Source: a virus (Duplodnaviria; Heunggongvirae; Uroviricota; Caudoviricetes). Taken from it: a DNA stretch of 27,180 nucleotides. The position numbers were made by a program, and so were the translations under genes. Below, piece after piece: positions 5,006 through 22,721 of this stretch. Numbering within the stretch: position 1 is the stretch's first letter; each line of letters opens with the position of its first letter. The notes beneath the pieces were generated by a model that ran no database searches, was not told the DNA's origin, and was given only the letters and a program-made list of their open reading frames with translations. Where the stretch lies: the IMG/VR virus record IMGVR_UViG_2740892115_000003, one strand, 5' to 3'.

Positions 5006-5094
5006 GTAACCACTATGCACACACAAAAAAACCGCTTGCCATGCCGCAATCAGTCAGGTTACATTTTCGCTGCACCTCATAAAACGGGTGCCGG

Positions 5095-5120
5095 GTTTCG
5101 CAGCCTGCTGACAACCAAAG
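5095..5120 (+). promoter_or_regulatory. Upstream pair of boxes complementary to the 5188-5263 RNA (analogue of P1 a1/b1 or P4 seqA)
   Basis: TTCGCAG (5097-5103) and CAACCAAAG (5112-5120) are exact complements of 5241-5247 and 5226-5234. Confidence 0.4.
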
Positions 5121-5152
5121 CGCACAACCGCGCCAGCGGTTTTTTTGTGCGT
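5121..5152 (+). terminator. Intrinsic terminator-like hairpin with U-tract
   Basis: AACCGC (5126-5131), a GCCA loop, GCGGTT (5136-5141) and a T-run through 5146 (7 T in total). The outer arms CGCACAA and TTGTGCG could extend the stem. Confidence 0.5.
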
Positions 5153-5187
5153 ACTGTATTGCCACGTTTTTTTCGCACACGAATTAT

Positions 5188-5263
5188 GGCGGGGCGTACG
5201 GGGCCGACTTCGGTCGGGCCGGGTTCTTTGGTTGCCGGTACTGCGAACCCCGTACGTCTCGCC
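5188..5263 (+). ncRNA. Putative cis-encoded antisense regulatory RNA (P1 c4 / P4 CI-like architecture)
   Basis: The hand fold has a 16-bp closing helix, 5188-5203 with 5248-5263. Two of its pairs are G-U wobbles valid only on the plus strand. Inside are hairpin 5204-5217 with a C(UUCG)G loop, hairpin 5218-5239, and a single-stranded junction 5240-5247. The 3' flank is ACCCA. The loop and junction carry the antisense boxes. No credible ORF covers this region. Confidence 0.6.
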
Positions 5264-5270
5264 ACCCACA

Positions 5271-8826: not shown

Positions 8827-9786
8827 ATGAAAATTTGTATCGATGACGGCTCCACCAACATCAAGCTGGCATGGACTGAGAACGGCGAACGCCGCAACGC
8901 CATCAGCCCGAACAGCTTCAAGTCGGAATGGTCTGCGCCGTTCGGTGGCACGCAGCCCGCGAACTACATGCTTGATGGCGTGCGCTATGGTTTTGATCCG
9001 GTCAGCGATCGCTTTGTCCAGACGACTGACACGCAATACCAGTACAGCGATGTGAATGTCATTGCCATTCATCACGCGTTGGTCAAATCAGGCATCACGC
9101 CACAGGAGGTGGATGTGGTTGTCACCCTGCCACTGAGCGAGTATTTCGACACAAACGCACAGCCGGACATAGCCAACATCAACCGCAAAAAAGCGAACGT
9201 TATGCGCCCGGTGGAGTACCAGAACGGCGAAGCATTCACTATCCGTAACGTACGGGTTATGCCTGAATCCATTCCGGCTGGCTTTAAGGCACTGGCTGAC
9301 ATGAGTCCGTTTGAATCCCTGCTGATTGTGGATTTAGGCGGAACCACGCTGGATGTGGCAAAGGTTCAGGGACAACTGGCAGGTATCAGCCAGGTGTTTT
9401 GCGATCCACACGTAGGCGTTTCCCTGATGGCCGATGCCGTACTGTCGGTGATGGCCACTAACGGTATGCGTACCAGTCACCACATCGCCAATACCATTAT
9501 CGAACATCGCCATGATGAAGCCTGGCTGCGCCAGCACATCCACAATGACGCGCATTACGCCAGCCTGATGGCGGTTATTCGTGAAAAGGAAGAAACACTG
9601 AAACAACGCGTGATCCGCGCGCTGGCGGGTTTTTCGGGTTACGGGCGGGTGATGGTTGTCGGTGGAGGGGCGGAGATTGTGGCACCCGCTATCCGCGAAG
9701 CCTGCGGAGTTAATGCGACTTTCATCGCGGACGGGGTGCCACAGTTTGCTCTGGTTAATGGGCTGTACGCAATGGACAAGGAGTAA
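8827..9786 (+). CDS. parM: Actin-like plasmid segregation ATPase ParM/StbA
   Basis: It aligns along its full length with plasmid R1 ParM (from memory). Shared motifs are IDDGSTNIKL, ISPNSFKSEW, VMPESIPAGF, DLGGTTLDV and GGGAE. Confidence 0.93.
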   Translation: MKICIDDGSTNIKLAWTENGERRNAISPNSFKSEWSAPFGGTQPANYMLDGVRYGFDPVSDRFVQTTDTQYQYSDVNVIAIHHALVKSGITPQEVDVVVTLPLSEYFDTNAQPDIANINRKKANVMRPVEYQNGEAFTIRNVRVMPESIPAGFKALADMSPFESLLIVDLGGTTLDVAKVQGQLAGISQVFCDPHVGVSLMADAVLSVMATNGMRTSHHIANTIIEHRHDEAWLRQHIHNDAHYASLMAVIREKEETLKQRVIRALAGFSGYGRVMVVGGGAEIVAPAIREACGVNATFIADGVPQFALVNGLYAMDKE

Positions 9787-9790
9787 ACCA

Positions 9791-10102
9791 ATGACGACAC
9801 CAACCAGACGGATAAGTTTCTATCTGAAGCCTGCGGCCGTCAAGAACGAAAGCGAAGCATGCGCCTGGCTGGACAGCCTTACACCAGAAGCCCGCAAAAG
9901 CGGCCAACGCGTGGCTTTTCTGGCCGGGCTGGCACTACTGAAAATGAATCCGGCAGAGGCTTACCGACTGGCTGCATGGGCTGATGATGAGGCATTATCA
10001 GTGACACAAACCAGGACAGAACGCCCCGCGTCACAGCCAGTATCAGCCGCACAGATAACCAGTCAGATGGCCGGAAATATCCGGGCGTTATTTCCCGAAT
10101 AA
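9791..10102 (+). CDS. parR: ParR-like centromere-binding adaptor (RHH N-terminus)
   Basis: The ATG at 9791 follows AAGGAG. RRISFYLKP...LDSLTPEARKSGQRVAFLAGLALLKMNP parallels R1 ParR (RRTIAFKLNP...LDSIPQGERSRLNRAALTAGLALYRQDP, from memory). It sits immediately after parM. Confidence 0.8.
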   Translation: MTTPTRRISFYLKPAAVKNESEACAWLDSLTPEARKSGQRVAFLAGLALLKMNPAEAYRLAAWADDEALSVTQTRTERPASQPVSAAQITSQMAGNIRALFPE

Positions 10103-10667: not shown

Positions 10668-11075
10668 TTAAATATAATCTTCTTCGTAGTCGCTGATTAA
10701 TTCATTGCCATAATCAGACAGCAATTTCAAAGCAAAGGTAACTTCCTCAAGGGTAGCTATCCCCATTGCTGAAAACACCGTTAATTTAACCAGCAGCAGG
10801 GAGTTTGAAAGTTCGGAAGAGTTCATCATTAAAAATATTGATGCAGCCTGAAAAGCTGTGCGTTTATTCCCATCATGAAAGGCATGAGCCTTGGCTATAC
10901 CAATCAAATACATAGCAGCCAGAGCATGAATATCATCAACCCCTTCATAGTAGTGTAGTGTCCTGACGCGATTTAAAGCACCTTCAAGTAGCCCGTCATT
11001 GGCATTTCCGCTCTGGGGTAAAGTTTCAGCATGGATACGTTCTACTTGTTCTTTTGACAAAAACACTATGTCCAT
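10668..11075 (-). CDS. doc: Doc (death-on-curing) Fic-fold toxin
   Basis: It carries the Doc/Fic motif HAFHDGNKRTAF. It is 135 aa long, and its start overlaps the stop of the upstream antitoxin ORF. Confidence 0.92.
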   Translation of the reverse strand: MDIVFLSKEQVERIHAETLPQSGNANDGLLEGALNRVRTLHYYEGVDDIHALAAMYLIGIAKAHAFHDGNKRTAFQAASIFLMMNSSELSNSLLLVKLTVFSAMGIATLEEVTFALKLLSDYGNELISDYEEDYI

Positions 11076-11431
11076 CAGTTATCCTCAAGCTTTTTAATGA
11101 TATCCGCATGTTTTTCTCTTGTACGCTTCATTGCATCTTCAAAAGACAATCCTTTTTTTCTCTGTGCGACAAGAGCTGGATGACGTTTTTCCAGATCTCT
11201 CACTGCATTTATTAAGAGTGGTTGCTTCATTTTGTTTATTTGATCCCGCAGTTTTTTGGTTTTGCCAAGGACAGCCCGTATTTCAGGACTAAGATCAGAA
11301 CCAGCAAGAACAACATCCTTCCCTCCCTGCGCAGTGATAACGACACTGCCACCGGAAGAAAGGTAATCCAGAATTTCACTCAGGTTCTCACGAAATTCAT
11401 CATCAGTTACAGTTTTCATATTCATTTCCAT
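11075..11431 (-). CDS. Phd/YefM-type antitoxin (long form)
   Basis: The N-terminus TVTDDEFRENLSEILDYLSSGGSVVITAQGGKDVVL has a Phd/YefM-fold pattern. It is translationally coupled to doc. The start may be an internal ATG (11425 or 11419). Confidence 0.8.
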   Translation of the reverse strand: MEMNMKTVTDDEFRENLSEILDYLSSGGSVVITAQGGKDVVLAGSDLSPEIRAVLGKTKKLRDQINKMKQPLLINAVRDLEKRHPALVAQRKKGLSFEDAMKRTREKHADIIKKLEDN

Positions 11432-18466: not shown

Positions 18467-18790
18467 GTGAGCACCATTCAAACAGGGATCACAGAGCAGG
18501 TTATTGCGTGGCTCTTTGACCACCTGCCAACGGTGTATGCAGTAGGCGCGGCTGTCAGCATTTCCGCGCTGATGAGTCTTTATGACGGACGAACACTGGT
18601 TCAGACCGTAACGGGATCGCTGGCGTGCGGCGTTCTTGCCATGGCCGTGGCCGGGTCGCTGCGCTTCTTCGGGATCCCTGAGGATGCAGTGACGTTTTTT
18701 GGTGCCTCAATCGGTTTTATGGGCGCAGAGAAAGCACGCGACAAGGTTATTGCAATATTTGATCGCAGGGTGAAGGAGAGGAACGAATGA
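18467..18790 (+). CDS. Putative holin (three hydrophobic segments)
   Basis: The GTG at 18467 follows GGGGGGAG. It has three TM-like stretches and a charged C-terminus (KARDKVIAIFDRRVKERNE). It sits directly upstream of the endolysin with an ATGA overlap. It does not resemble P2 gpY. Confidence 0.6.
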   Translation: MSTIQTGITEQVIAWLFDHLPTVYAVGAAVSISALMSLYDGRTLVQTVTGSLACGVLAMAVAGSLRFFGIPEDAVTFFGASIGFMGAEKARDKVIAIFDRRVKERNE

Positions 18791-19179
18791 GCAACACATT
18801 TAAATTCAGCAGCCGAAGCGAAAAGAATTTGCAGGGTGTAAATCCTGATCTGGTGAAAGTGACCCGACGGGCGCTGGAAATCTCGGAAGTGGATTTTGGT
18901 ATCACCGAAGGATTGCGCAGTCGTTATCGTCAGAAGCAGCTCGTGACCACAGGCAAGAGCCAGACCATGAACAGTCGCCATCTCACAGGGCATGCCGTGG
19001 ATGTTGTGGCTTATGTCGGCAACCAGGTGTCATGGGAATGGCCGCTGTACGAAAAAATCGCAGCAGCATTCAGACAGGCCAGCCAGGAACTGAATATTCC
19101 GGTGGAATGGGGCGGCGACTGGAAGACCCTGAAAGACGGACCGCATTTTCAGTTACCACACGGAGCCTATCCGGCATGA
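18787..19179 (+). CDS. Endolysin, peptidase M15 (L-alanyl-D-glutamate / VanY-type zinc peptidase)
   Basis: It has the zinc-ligand pattern SRHLTGHAVDV ... DGPHFQL. It is 130 aa and sits in the lysis-cassette position. Confidence 0.9.
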   Translation: MSNTFKFSSRSEKNLQGVNPDLVKVTRRALEISEVDFGITEGLRSRYRQKQLVTTGKSQTMNSRHLTGHAVDVVAYVGNQVSWEWPLYEKIAAAFRQASQELNIPVEWGGDWKTLKDGPHFQLPHGAYPA

Positions 19180-19583
19180 AGCTCTGGCCCACGCTTGGCG
19201 TCGCTTTCCTTCTGATTGCCGCATGGGGAACATCCATGCGTCTGTCGTGGTCGCTGGGCCGGGAGAACGCCAGAAACGAAGCGCAGGCCAGCACCCTGAA
19301 AAGTACCGTCGACACACTGAATATCATCAGCGCCGGGGTACAGGATATGCAGCAGGTGCTGGCTCAGCTCCGCGCGGAAAATCAGCAACGCAATCAGGAC
19401 GGAGAGGTAAGACGTGAACAGCTACGCAACGATATTGCAAAAGATGAATGCGCCCACGCTTTGCCTGACGCTCGTTTTACTGACAGGTTGCGCAGGCACG
19501 CAGAACGCGCCAGGGCCAGCGCCGTCAGTCCGGCTTATACCGCAGACGCTGACCATGCCGGTAACGCCCCCCCCCTTCCCTGA
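19176..19583 (+). CDS. i-spanin (Rz/LysB-like)
   Basis: The ATG at 19176 overlaps the endolysin stop. It has an N-terminal TM segment (LWPTLGVAFLLIAAWG), then a coiled-coil-like charged region. Confidence 0.75.
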   Translation: MKLWPTLGVAFLLIAAWGTSMRLSWSLGRENARNEAQASTLKSTVDTLNIISAGVQDMQQVLAQLRAENQQRNQDGEVRREQLRNDIAKDECAHALPDARFTDRLRRHAERARASAVSPAYTADADHAGNAPPLP

Positions 19584-19725
19584 CCCACCCACATGGGGAA
19601 ACCTCGGAATATGGGGCGACCGCCTTCTGGATGCACTGGAAACCTGTAACGCGGATAAACGGGCCATTGCTGAACTGGATAAGAGAATAGCCGAACTGAC
19701 ACACCAGACGGGAGTAACACAATGA
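19444..19725 (+). CDS. o-spanin (Rz1/LysC-like outer-membrane lipoprotein), overlapping the i-spanin in the +1 frame
   Basis: MNAPTLCLTLVLLTGC carries a lipobox (LLTG|C). The mature part is proline-rich. It starts inside the i-spanin and extends beyond it, as with P2 lysB/lysC. Confidence 0.7.
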   Translation: MNAPTLCLTLVLLTGCAGTQNAPGPAPSVRLIPQTLTMPVTPPPFPDPPTWGNLGIWGDRLLDALETCNADKRAIAELDKRIAELTHQTGVTQ

Positions 19726-21602
19726 CCAGTAAGAACTTTGCACTGATTACAGCCATGACACAGGCTGAACTGACTCAAAAGGTGAATGAACATCTTGCGA
19801 AAGGGTGGCATCTTCAGGGGGAGACGCGGGTTGCCTACGAACCCGGCACCCCGTGGTATCTAATGCAGGCAATGGTGGCCGATGGCACTACAGACATCTC
19901 ACCTGATTCCCCCCAGCACGGCAGCGTGCCGGAGTGGTATTACGTGGTGGTACTTGCTGGTCAATCCAATGCCATGTCATATGGTGATGGAATGCCGCTG
20001 CCGGATTCTTACGATGCGCCCCACCCACGCATTAAGCAACTGGCCCGTCGCAACACAGTGACTCCCGGTGGTAAAGCATGCGCATTTAACGACATCATTC
20101 CGGCAGACCACTGCCTGCATGATGTTCAGGATATGAGCGCACTGAATCATCCGAAGGCAGACCTGAGCAAAGGGCAGTACGGCTGTGTCGGCCAGGGCTT
20201 ACATATTGCCAAAAAACTGCTTCCGTATATCCCGAATAACGCGGGGATCCTGCTGGTACCATGCTGTCGTGGTGGTTCGGCATTCACCCAGGGCGCGGAG
20301 GGGACATTCAGTGCGGACACGGGGGCCAGCCAGGATTCGGCGCGCTGGGGTGCGGGTAAGCCGTTATATCAGGACCTGATCGCACGCACCAAAGCGGCAT
20401 TACAGAAGAACCCGAAAAATGTGTTGCTGGCGGTGTGCTGGATGCAGGGCGAATTTGACATGAGCGCTGCCACCTACGCACAGCAACCGGACCTGTTCAC
20501 GGCCATGCTGAAGCAGTTCCGTACTGACCTTTCCGGATTTAACGCGCAGTGCCATGGCGGCAGTGCTGCAGTTGTACCGTGGATTTGTGGCGACACGACG
20601 TATTACTGGAAAAACACATACGGCACACAGTATGACTCCGTCTACGGCGCGTACAAAAACAGGGAGAGCGACAACGTTTTCTTTGTGCCGTTCATGACCG
20701 ACGGTAACGGCAACAACACGCCCACCAACTTACCGGCAGAAGACCCGGATATTGCTGATGCAGGTTATTACGGCGCGCAATCCCGTAGTAATGGTAATTG
20801 GGTATCGTCAAATCGTCCGACACATTTCAGTTCATGGGCGCGCAGGGGCATTATTTCGGATCGCCTGGCAACCGCTATTCTGAACGCAGTTGGTCGAACC
20901 AGCGCCTTCATCAGCGGTACCGCACCGGAGATTAAACCCTCGCCCGGCGGCGACACGCCATCGGGGCCGTCTGATGGTGACACATCCGTTCGTACAGTCT
21001 CCCTGCTGCCGACAGCCGGAGAGGCTGCTGCGCAGGGCTGGACCATCACCGGCGGCAGTGTTGCGCTGGAAGATGGTGTGTTTAAGGTTACCAAGCAGAG
21101 CAATAAAACCTGGTCCCTGATGCATCCGGTGGATGACGCAGTCTCCCTGCTGACACGGGGTGGCAGACTGAGCTGTAAGTTTCGACTGTCAGGCGCACTG
21201 ACCAACAACCAGTTCGGTCTGGGAATTTATCTGTATACCGATGTAGCGTTACCTGACGTCGTGGCGATGACCGGGACTGGTAACCCGTTCCTGATGTCGT
21301 TCTTCACCCAGACCACAGACGGCAAACTGAATCTGATGCATCACAAGAAAGCCGGAAACACAAAGTTGGGCGAGTTCGGGAATTACAGTAACGACTGGCA
21401 GACGCTGGAGCTGGTGTTCACCGCCGGCAGTGCCACGGTTACTCCGAAACTGAATGGAGTGGCTGGCCCGGCATTCCAGGTCATAAAAGACAGTCTGACA
21501 CTGGGGCTGAATGCGCTGACGTTAACTGATATCACTAAAAATGCCGCGTACGGCGTCGATATCGGTAGCCTGGTGCTGGAAATCAATAATCCCGCAGCAT
21601 AA
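19722..21602 (+). CDS. DUF1737 / sialate O-acetylesterase (SASA, SGNH-like) / C-terminal lectin-like protein (NanS-p-like)
   Basis: The N-terminus (ALITAMTQAELTQKVNEHLAKGWHLQGE) is DUF1737-like. The esterase has a GQSN nucleophile motif (VVLAGQSNAMSYGDG), then WMQGEFD and PTHFS. The C-terminal ~200 aa are beta-rich and LamG/ConA-like. Its ATGA start overlaps the o-spanin stop. Confidence 0.85.
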   Translation: MTSKNFALITAMTQAELTQKVNEHLAKGWHLQGETRVAYEPGTPWYLMQAMVADGTTDISPDSPQHGSVPEWYYVVVLAGQSNAMSYGDGMPLPDSYDAPHPRIKQLARRNTVTPGGKACAFNDIIPADHCLHDVQDMSALNHPKADLSKGQYGCVGQGLHIAKKLLPYIPNNAGILLVPCCRGGSAFTQGAEGTFSADTGASQDSARWGAGKPLYQDLIARTKAALQKNPKNVLLAVCWMQGEFDMSAATYAQQPDLFTAMLKQFRTDLSGFNAQCHGGSAAVVPWICGDTTYYWKNTYGTQYDSVYGAYKNRESDNVFFVPFMTDGNGNNTPTNLPAEDPDIADAGYYGAQSRSNGNWVSSNRPTHFSSWARRGIISDRLATAILNAVGRTSAFISGTAPEIKPSPGGDTPSGPSDGDTSVRTVSLLPTAGEAAAQGWTITGGSVALEDGVFKVTKQSNKTWSLMHPVDDAVSLLTRGGRLSCKFRLSGALTNNQFGLGIYLYTDVALPDVVAMTGTGNPFLMSFFTQTTDGKLNLMHHKKAGNTKLGEFGNYSNDWQTLELVFTAGSATVTPKLNGVAGPAFQVIKDSLTLGLNALTLTDITKNAAYGVDIGSLVLEINNPAA

Positions 21603-21625: not shown

Positions 21626-22093
21626 ATGCTTAAGACAAACAGTCTGCGAGAGTCCATGCTTCATGGGTGTCGGTGGTGCCAGGCTAATCCCGAGAAATTC
21701 ACCATTTTCGTGGAGAGCGGCAACATTGAAACGACCGGAGAAGCGCCCTCGTTTGTTTACCGCTATCAGATGGTGATGTTTGTCATGGATTACGCCGGAG
21801 AGCTGGACGACCTCACGCTGCCGCTGCTGGCGTGGTTATCCGAAAATCAGCCACAGTTGTTGCTCAATCCGGAGCGTAATCAGGACATCAAATTTTCTGC
21901 CGTTATCAATGACGATGACAGCGCCGATCTCCTGTTTACGCTCCCCCTGCGGGAACGCGTTCGCATCACGCGCAACAGTCAGGGCACACCGCAGGCAGAA
22001 CACCTGCCGGAGCCAAAACCCCGTCTGCCTTCTTCCGAAGGCGACTGGTCGCATGTATTCCAGGATGTGACGTGGGGTGAAAGCGATGGATAA
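21626..22093 (+). CDS. R: Tail completion protein R
   Basis: MLKTNSLRE...FVESGNIE...LPLLAWLSENQP aligns with P2 gpR (MLKPDSLRR...FVDNGSIA...VPVLAWLRENQP, from memory). It is 155 aa. Confidence 0.85.
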   Translation: MLKTNSLRESMLHGCRWCQANPEKFTIFVESGNIETTGEAPSFVYRYQMVMFVMDYAGELDDLTLPLLAWLSENQPQLLLNPERNQDIKFSAVINDDDSADLLFTLPLRERVRITRNSQGTPQAEHLPEPKPRLPSSEGDWSHVFQDVTWGESDG

Positions 22094-22721
22094 GGCATTC
22101 ACCAGCGTGGATGAAACCTTTGAGGCTATCCGCGACAGCCTGAATCAGCAGGCCATCAATAACATCGCCAGAAAGCTGGCACAGGATTTACGTCGCGCCC
22201 AGCAGGCACGTATCCGGTCACAAAAAGCGCCGGACGGGACCGAATGGACACCACGCAGACGCCGCGTAACCCGGATACAGGAGCGCATTCGCTTTATCTG
22301 GAATAACGAAGCACGCACGCTGAAAAACTGGCATCACGACACAGGGAAATACGGGCGAACCATTACCGGGTGGGATGAGGATAAAAACAATATCCGCACG
22401 TTTTACCGGGATGACATCGACCGTTTTCTGGAAATACGCACCCGGCGCATCAACCAGGACAGCACAAAGCGCGTCCCCATGTTCGTAAAACTGCGCACCG
22501 CCCGCTACCTGAAAGCCCGTGCAGATGCTTCCGGTGTGACGGTGGGTTACAGCGGCGTGGCCGCACGTATTGCCCGCGTTCATCAGTTCGGTGAGCGCGA
22601 TCAGGTTGCGCCGGGCATTTTCACCGATTACCCGGTACGTGAGCTGCTGGGTATCAGCCAGGCAGATGAGCGCCTGATTTATAACACGGTGCTGGGCCGG
22701 ATTGCGGAGGCTGTACGGTGA
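22086..22721 (+). CDS. S: Tail completion / virion morphogenesis protein S (with an internal insertion)
   Basis: The ATG is at 22086, with a track GTG at 22077 in the same frame. The ends align with P2 gpS (QQARIRSQKAPDGTEW ... MFVKLRTARYLKA ... ARVHQFG ... LLGIS.AD). About 60 extra residues sit in the middle. Confidence 0.8.
   Translation: MDKAFTSVDETFEAIRDSLNQQAINNIARKLAQDLRRAQQARIRSQKAPDGTEWTPRRRRVTRIQERIRFIWNNEARTLKNWHHDTGKYGRTITGWDEDKNNIRTFYRDDIDRFLEIRTRRINQDSTKRVPMFVKLRTARYLKARADASGVTVGYSGVAARIARVHQFGERDQVAPGIFTDYPVRELLGISQADERLIYNTVLGRIAEAVR

Follow-up and report, generated by a model that had tools for sequence, protein, structure and literature searches.

Sialate O-acetylesterases of the NanS-p type allow pathogenic as well as commensal Escherichia coli to use the O-acetylated sialic acids of gut mucin and have so far been treated as a trait of Shiga toxin (Stx)-converting and other lambdoid prophages. 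The five NanS-p enzymes of strain C227-11phi-cu and the NanS-p of EDL933 are prophage-encoded, act on 9-O-acetyl-N-acetylneuraminic acid (Neu5,9Ac2) and on mucin glycans and are needed for, or support, growth on Neu5,9Ac2 (PMC8065619). In published work on Stx2a lysogens, mitomycin C raised the nanS-p transcripts by 1-2.4 logs. For gp84, the family member from phage phi24B, electron cryomicroscopy and proteomics have placed hexamers of the DUF1737 domain in the central hexon pores of a T=9 capsid, where they are anchored by a loop bearing Tyr42 while the remainder of the protein is cleaved off (bioRxiv 10.64898/2026.04.10.717836).

The window analyzed in this work is the complete 27,180-nucleotide stretch of the IMG/VR virus record IMGVR_UViG_2740892115_000003 (Caudoviricetes). 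Between the gene for the outer spanin LysC and the tail gene R it contains an open reading frame of 626 codons plus stop (19722..21602, plus strand) that starts with ATG and ends with the stop codon at 21600-21602, exactly where an earlier note, made from the letters alone, had placed a NanS-p-like gene. With high probability, this gene is an intact nanS-p allele for an SASA/SGNH-type sialate O-acetylesterase, which is carried as cargo by a P88-like prophage and whose product would be released at lysis. The homology of the domains, the catalytic residues, the location and spread of the gene and its mosaic origin are established directly, whereas late transcription, release at lysis, substrate and benefit to the lysogen are deduced. 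The NanS-p enzyme itself is not new. What is unusual is that a small N-terminal domain is specific for the head type of the carrier, whereas the remainder of the gene, which encodes the body of the enzyme, is exchanged with lambdoid prophages.

Domains and active site of the 626-residue protein

Judged by its sequence, the chemistry and the family of the 626-residue protein can be regarded as settled, that is, it is a NanS-p. The Pfam models for DUF1737 (amino acids 4-53), SASA (amino acids 75-271) and DUF6645 (amino acids 477-587) all match above their gathering scores, PHROGs assigns the entire protein to phrog_143, and no NCBIfam model was found to match it. In RefSeq, the protein is labeled 'DUF6645 domain-containing protein'. 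When compared with the sequences of solved structures, amino acids 69-388 match E. coli NanS (YjhS, 3PT5) with E=3e-123 and amino acids 431-623 match the crystallized C-terminal domain of phi24B NanS-p (6YP6) with E=4e-30, so that the order of DUF1737, SASA esterase and lectin-like domain read by the earlier note is borne out. An AlphaFold (AF2) model built on 36 homologues predicts three folded modules and two low-confidence Ser/Pro-rich linkers (amino acids 56-68 and 404-422). Its best Foldseek matches are 3PT5 with a template modeling (TM) score of 0.86 and 57% identity and, for the C-terminal domain, 6YP6 with a TM score of 0.83, in agreement with the kinship to NanS-p that had been proposed; the next best match of the C-terminal domain is the sialic-acid-binding lectin domain of Vibrio cholerae sialidase (2W68). 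The linkers (ISPDSP; KPSPGGDTPSGPS) are predicted to be disordered, and linker 1 varies even within the P88 lineage.

Four blocks have been tabulated for the active site of NanS, namely GQSNA, RGGSAF, MQGEFD and R-x-SHFS (PMC10792757). The 626-residue protein contains GQSNA at positions 80-84, RGGSAF at 183-188, MQGEFD at 241-246 and RPTHFS at 365-370, and all three motifs from which an esterase had originally been read were located (GQSN, 80-83; WMQGEFD, 240-246; THF, 367-369). Ser82, Gly184, Glu244 and His368 are invariant among the 36 homologues. Domains, matches to solved structures and catalytic blocks taken together, the protein therefore agrees with the NanS-p family at every point that can be read from a sequence. 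It shares 79-80% identity with the products of Stx1a-phage genes annotated as 9-O-acetyl-N-acetylneuraminic acid deacetylase. An N-terminal signal peptide was not found upon direct reading of the 626 residues.

Position, carriers and mosaic origin of the gene

Upstream of the esterase gene lie L, X and the genes for a holin, an M15 endolysin, an inner spanin and the outer spanin LysC, the last of these partly nested within the inner spanin gene, while R, S and V follow downstream (Table 1). The esterase start codon shares the sequence ATGA (19722-19725) with the lysC stop codon, as had been claimed, and is preceded by a GGGAG Shine-Dalgarno sequence about 9 nucleotides upstream. Gene R starts at 21626, 23 nucleotides past the esterase stop codon. 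Of the chain of overlaps that had been described for this region, three links of 4 nucleotides each (holin/endolysin, endolysin/lysB and lysC/esterase) are borne out by the gene coordinates given in a RefSeq record of 100% identity. With 55.4% guanine plus cytosine in the esterase gene and 56% in the flanks, no compositional signal of foreign origin was found for the gene relative to its surroundings. Open reading frames on the minus strand inside the esterase gene were set aside as the full-length homology of the plus strand accounts for the region.

According to Pfam (Phage_GPL, Phage_tail_X, P2_Phage_GpR, Phage_tail_S, Phage_base_V) and to the annotation of the identical record, the head and tail genes of the window are of P2 type and are arranged as in P2 (Q P / O N M L X, lysis, R S V W J I H). 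With regard to its backbone the prophage is P88-like (Xuanwuvirus, Peduoviridae, P2 family), and the flanks of the esterase gene share 96-97% DNA identity with P88 and its relatives. Alignments with P88 and other Xuanwuvirus phages split into two pieces because these phages do not carry the esterase gene. The observation that P2 has no cargo gene at this point stands, since its lysC directly overlaps R, and P88, the closest sequenced relative of the backbone, likewise has nothing between the two genes. In carriers, about 17 C-terminal residues of the outer spanin differ from those of P88 because the insertion replaces the last 50 or so nucleotides of lysC (19670-19725 in the window).

Table 1. 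Features in and around the esterase gene (positions refer to the 27,180-nucleotide window; pLDDT, predicted local distance difference test; dN/dS, ratio of nonsynonymous to synonymous substitution rates).
Feature	Position	Strand	Basis
nanS-p-like gene, 626 amino acids plus stop	19722..21602	+	Open reading frame list; phrog_143 full length, 1079 bits; 100% identical to WP_063611463.1 in NZ_OZ039818.1
DUF1737 N-domain, amino acids 1-55, P2-head-type variant	19722..19886	+	PF08410, 30.5 bits (cut-off 24); predicted beta-alpha-beta-beta
Linker 1, amino acids 56-68, Ser/Pro/Thr-rich, fast-evolving	19887..19925	+	pLDDT <50; sequence fully replaced in L025, dN/dS 0.73
SASA/SGNH esterase domain, amino acids 69-398, NanS homologue	19926..20915	+	3PT5, E=3e-123; Foldseek TM 0.86
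Ser82 codon, predicted nucleophile, GQSNA block I	19965..19967	+	Aligned to GQSNA 17-21 of 3PT5; invariant in 36 homologues
His368 codon, predicted general base, R-x-THFS block V	20823..20825	+	Aligned to SHFS (His301) of 3PT5; invariant in 36 homologues
Linker 2, amino acids 399-421, Pro/Ser-rich	20916..20984	+	pLDDT <50 for 404-422
Lectin-like jelly-roll C-domain, amino acids 422-626, DUF6645	20985..21599	+	PF20350, E=2e-19; 6YP6, E=4e-30; Foldseek TM 0.83
Exchangeable body, 99-100% DNA identity to lambdoid alleles L030/L033	20000..21470	+	Sliding-window identity; breakpoint alignment
Segment without counterpart in phage P88	19670..21625	+	P88 alignments; replaces last ~50 nucleotides of lysC and the R ribosome-binding region
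Holin	18467..18790	+	Pfam Phage_holin_3_1; RefSeq annotation
M15 endolysin	18787..19179	+	Pfam Peptidase_M15_4; phrog_465
lysB-like inner spanin (DUF2570)	19176..19583	+	phrog_214, E=9e-42; RefSeq annotation
lysC (outer spanin, lipobox LLTGC), stop overlapping esterase ATG	19465..19725	+	Pfam LysC, E=1.6e-13; RefSeq annotation
Tail completion gene R	21626..22093	+	Pfam P2_Phage_GpR, E=1.4e-38
Gene S (virion morphogenesis)	22086..22721	+	Pfam Phage_tail_S; RefSeq annotation

Out of 5426 complete E. coli genomes, 373 (about 7%) have the arrangement lysC-esterase-R in the same P88-like slot when at least 80% of a 2.8-kb query has to be covered. One record is 100% identical, and for the O104:H4 outbreak strains C227-11, 2011C-3493 and HUSEC2011 identity amounts to 99.3% across the region and to 99.7% within the gene. 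Carriers belong to many serotypes including O104, O26 and O25b of sequence type 131 (ST131). In the searchable literature no explicit mention of P2-like nanS-p carriers was found, the single paper in which both terms occur applying 'P2-like' to cdt phages. A second P2-family lineage (loci L104/L105; P0047, P0064) also bears nanS-p in the slot between spanin and R. Its members encode a lysozyme-type endolysin, a capsid protein that is 62% identical and an N-domain that is 58-62% identical to those of the window, and in L105 a DUF1378 gene directly follows nanS-p.

The gene is a sharp mosaic. Its first ~280 nucleotides, which encode DUF1737, the linker and the first residues of the esterase domain, its last ~130 nucleotides and both flanks are specific for the P88 lineage, and the body in between is shared with lambdoid alleles (Table 1). 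At the protein level, lambdoid N-domains share only about 35% identity with the DUF1737 domain of the window, whereas amino acids 69-626 are about 88% identical to one Stx1a-phage allele and 98-99% identical to the lambdoid alleles L030-L044. Among P88-like carriers the body varies between 81 and 100% identity and the N-domain is constant; of the 376 E. coli genomes that have this domain, 367 carry it with a DNA identity of 99% or more. In line with this pattern, a tblastn search with amino acids 1-72 retrieved only three P88-like records out of 50,697 phage records and missed all of the approximately 350 lambdoid carriers that are matched by the full protein. We suggest that the 1.5-kb body is swapped with lambdoid nanS-p by homologous recombination, probably between co-resident prophages. 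In fact, P88-like and L030-type lambdoid nanS-p copies reside together in strains PCN033, 190693, 266917_2, NCCP15648, TOE17 and BEC1-S17-ESBL-09, which would allow gene conversion of the body.

Hybrid loci were also encountered. In L023 and L024 a P88-like left arm is joined via nanS-p to lambdoid S/R/Rz genes, with lambdoid terminase and head genes further downstream in L023, and in L079 and L099 a lambdoid left arm is joined to P2-type R/S, the crossover lying within the shared 1.5-kb body. The two pairs could be the reciprocal outcomes of a crossover of two prophages or, alternatively, assembly chimeras. Some database copies (P0002-P0006) have a frameshift just past the N-domain that leaves open reading frames for DUF1737 only, and in P0019 the esterase is fused in frame to a tail-fiber Collar domain, a fusion that points to a deletion reaching from nanS-p as far as gene H.

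The same loci mark nanS-p as a recombination substrate and, together with the truncated and frameshifted copies, could be taken to mean that the gene is a decaying, inactive leftover of lambdoid recombination that has no function in a P2-family phage. We hold this to be very improbable. The open reading frame runs uninterrupted over its full length and retains every catalytic residue, the gene persists in one slot across the 373 genomes with a nearly invariant N-domain that is under purifying selection (see below), and a second, distantly related P2-family lineage has it, too.

The exchangeable body likewise bears on a proposal according to which the esterase deacetylates O-antigen or an O-acetylated sialic-acid capsule and thereby aids adsorption or blocks superinfection, as has been raised as a possibility for NanS-p (PMC8065619). 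The lectin-like C-domain, with a sialic-acid-binding module as next-best fold match, would be compatible with such an activity. On the other hand, the body is 99-100% identical to alleles of lambdoid phages with other tails and receptors and is therefore not tuned to the receptor of one phage. Furthermore, the esterase domain is about 57% identical to chromosomal NanS, which is a catabolic enzyme, the published substrates of NanS-p are host sialoglycans, and the carriers are spread over many serotypes. Receptor modification thus appears unlikely.

Outside the late region the window holds isrK small RNA and C4 antisense RNA matches in Rfam (5072-5146 and 5182-5269, plus strand; C4, 87 bits against a gathering score of 45). 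They lie in the early region by a pseudogene of the 'ash family' and look like a P1/P7-type antirepressor immunity module in a P2-family prophage. A Phd/Doc toxin-antitoxin pair (about 10668-11419, minus strand) and ParM/ParR-like partition genes (about 8827-10102, plus strand) are annotated between the replication and portal genes in the RefSeq record of 100% identity.

Proposed late expression and release, and the N-terminal domain

In P2, lysC and R are both annotated within the O operon, and by synteny the esterase slot falls inside a late operon of this type. No plus-strand terminator-like site adjoins the esterase gene, and the sole promoter-like match in its vicinity is a weak one at 19696. 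Late expression, which had been proposed before and is a sound deduction, is suggested by the position in the O operon, by translation coupled to that of lysC and by the fact that no terminator-like sites flank the gene. According to our proposal, nanS-p would be a non-essential cargo between lysC and R whose translation is coupled to that of lysC, and the 626-residue enzyme would be made only once the prophage enters lytic growth. As an export signal is lacking and the lysis cassette adjoins, the enzyme would be set free upon lysis of the host by holin, endolysin and spanins. Outside the cell it may strip O-acetyl groups from Neu5,9Ac2 and from O-acetylated mucin sialoglycans, as other NanS-p enzymes do, and N-acetylneuraminic acid (Neu5Ac) would become usable by surviving lysogens, which would thus benefit from the released enzyme.

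Several points weigh against this proposal. Prophages of the P2 family can often be induced only poorly, and release of the enzyme would be limited accordingly. Matches to the P2-type late promoter (TGT-N12-ACA) occur at chance frequency and none in the P/O intergenic region is convincing, so that assignment to the operon rests on synteny with P2. The substrate is deduced from homology, as published assays cover other NanS-p enzymes and not exactly this allele. It is likely that the P88-like allele, WP_000202135.1, was among the five assayed from C227-11phi-cu; however, the five nanS-like places found by blastn in wild-type C227-11 fit poorly to five alleles of its Stx-cured derivative. Finally, since the phi24B family member is a processed virion protein, the description as purely soluble cargo may be incomplete. 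Beneficiary and localization are the main question, and an enzyme tethered to the capsid is a live alternative to a soluble public good for lysogens.

This alternative draws on the N-terminal domain, which was compared with the head type over about 100 related loci. Lambda-type N-domains occur together with lambda-like GpA, portal and gpE genes, the phi24B N-domain, which differs in its second half, occurs with phi24B head genes, and the P2-type N-domain occurs with P2-family capsid genes, including those of the distant lineage L104/L105. In Mu-like prophages it is replaced by an unrelated N-terminus of about 110 residues that has no match in Pfam. The N-domain of the window is under purifying selection, with dN/dS values of 0.06 against L025 and 0.13-0.15 against L104/L105, whereas the adjacent linker evolves nearly neutrally (dN/dS 0.73). 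Loop 39-46 (A-x-EPG-x-PWY) is invariant in the P2 clade and the same segment varies between head types. In the AF2 prediction, which has a pLDDT of 66-81 for this domain, there are strands at 5-11, 29-38 and 46-53 and a helix at 14-26; the loop at 39-45 carries Tyr39 and Trp45, and Tyr46 opens the next strand. The predicted single helix and three antiparallel strands with an aromatic loop fit the description of gp84. A solved structure for the N-domain was not found, the search yielding only chance coiled-coil matches.

The P2-type DUF1737 may accordingly be imagined to dock on the head hexons of P2-family phages such that esterase and lectin domain ride on the virion, and the payload may be released at a later point by cleavage in the Ser/Pro-rich linkers. 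The enzyme would then serve the phage through mucus adherence or penetration or through access to the host surface. The chemistry would be the same as that of a cargo released at lysis, the difference being one of localization and beneficiary, and such a role may add to the feeding of lysogens. By analogy with the hexameric and processed gp84, we consider docking on the capsid possible but doubtful. It would agree with the restriction of the N-domain to three P88-like phage records, with the way its clades follow the head type, with the same N-type in the same slot of L104/L105 and with the selection on domain and loop. Linkage alone, however, keeps a diverged 5' end together with its backbone and yields the same co-variation, which is therefore no proof of a function of the N-domain. 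Moreover, gp84 occupies only the flat face-centre hexons of its T=9 shell, whereas P2 heads have T=7 symmetry and are not known to contain such a hexon. The esterase gene is also dispensable, because P88 and its close relatives lack it despite capsid proteins that are 97% identical.

Stand-alone relatives of the domain were searched for as well. Two word-index searches returned only fragments and frameshifted copies of the same gene, and an exhaustive HMMER search returned a few DUF1737 proteins of 54-62 residues that are 43-47% identical to the P2-type N-domain. Those from L112-L117 (P0137, P0138) are 43-46% identical to it and thus closer than the N-domains of lambdoid NanS-p. Their genes are found close to recT in the company of small early genes and away from head genes, and one further match is on a contig too short to interpret. 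An ancestor in the P2 head module was therefore not found, which counts against docking. The records vB_EcoM-569R5 and vB_EcoM-705R2 were rejected as virion evidence, as the former covers part of a prophage together with host genes on a contig that is cut inside the repeated gene and the latter ends inside the esterase gene.

Co-variation, selection on the N-domain and the phi24B precedent together favor some role in the virion. The virion-associated alternative mentioned in the earlier note has thus gained weight through the phi24B preprint and the head-type-specific DUF1737, whereas its receptor-modifying variant is rated low. As a tentative and rather speculative generalization, the N-terminal module of NanS-p might serve as an exchangeable adaptor that docks the protein on the virion and is suited to the head type of each carrier phage, with a shared esterase-plus-lectin payload circulating between phages.

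Significance and comparison with known systems

The enzyme, the function of its family, its carriage by non-Stx prophages and the presence of the allele in well-studied strains are already known. Our findings add, to a modest extent, the explicit carriage of nanS-p by P2-family and Mu-like prophages, the sharp mosaic with a head-type-specific N-terminal module and the recombination of unrelated prophages through nanS-p. The same enzyme body is found in P2-family prophages, including those of O104:H4, O26 and ST131 strains, and in Mu-like prophages. Copies that recombine affect counts of nanS-p dosage in genomes and help to explain prophage-mediated rearrangements. The findings also bear on whether NanS-p serves the lysogen or the virion. 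If the module were indeed a docking adaptor, capsids of P2-family phages would display the protein and these myoviruses would be mucus-active particles.

P88 and other Xuanwuvirus phages are 95-100% identical to the window in L, X, holin, M15 endolysin, spanins, R and S but have no gene between lysC and R, and the 3' end of P88 lysC differs. Small capsid-binding modules with an outward glycan-interacting part are known from the hexon-centre decoration proteins Hoc of T4 and pb10 of T5. The likeness, taken from the comparison in the phi24B preprint, is one of analogy only, and capsid binding of the window protein is putative.

Chromosomal NanS (YjhS, 3PT5) shares the fold and the GQSNA, RGGSAF, MQGEFD and SHFS blocks with the esterase domain at about 57-60% identity. 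In contrast to the window protein, it consists of the catalytic domain alone, lacks DUF1737 and the lectin domain and belongs to the nan regulon of the host. The NanS-p proteins of Mu-like prophages (P0107, L101-L103) share an esterase-plus-lectin body that is 59% identical to that of the window and differ in having an N-terminus of their own. In these prophages nanS-p is located between a gin-type invertase gene and com/mom, and DUF1378 and DUF826 genes come next, as they do in Stx phages.

The lambdoid NanS-p proteins (933W L0105/z1466, phi24B vb_24B_21, that is gp84, and the L030 type) closely resemble the window protein. They have the same order of DUF1737, SASA and DUF6645, the same catalytic blocks and a late-region position and likewise lack a signal peptide. 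The body of the window protein is 98-100% identical to some alleles from phages with lambda-type heads, and overall identity to phi24B gp84 is 53%. The carriers differ, one being a P2-family myovirus and the others lambdoid phages, and no DUF1378 or DUF826 genes follow the esterase gene in the window, unlike in lambdoid carriers. The statement in the earlier note that the gene adjoins the lysis genes as in lambdoid phages holds insofar as both are neighbors in the late region; the lambdoid gene, however, precedes the lysis cassette, lying between stx and S, whereas that of the window follows it. With its DUF1737 domain, the window protein belongs to a clade separate from that of the lambdoid N-domains.

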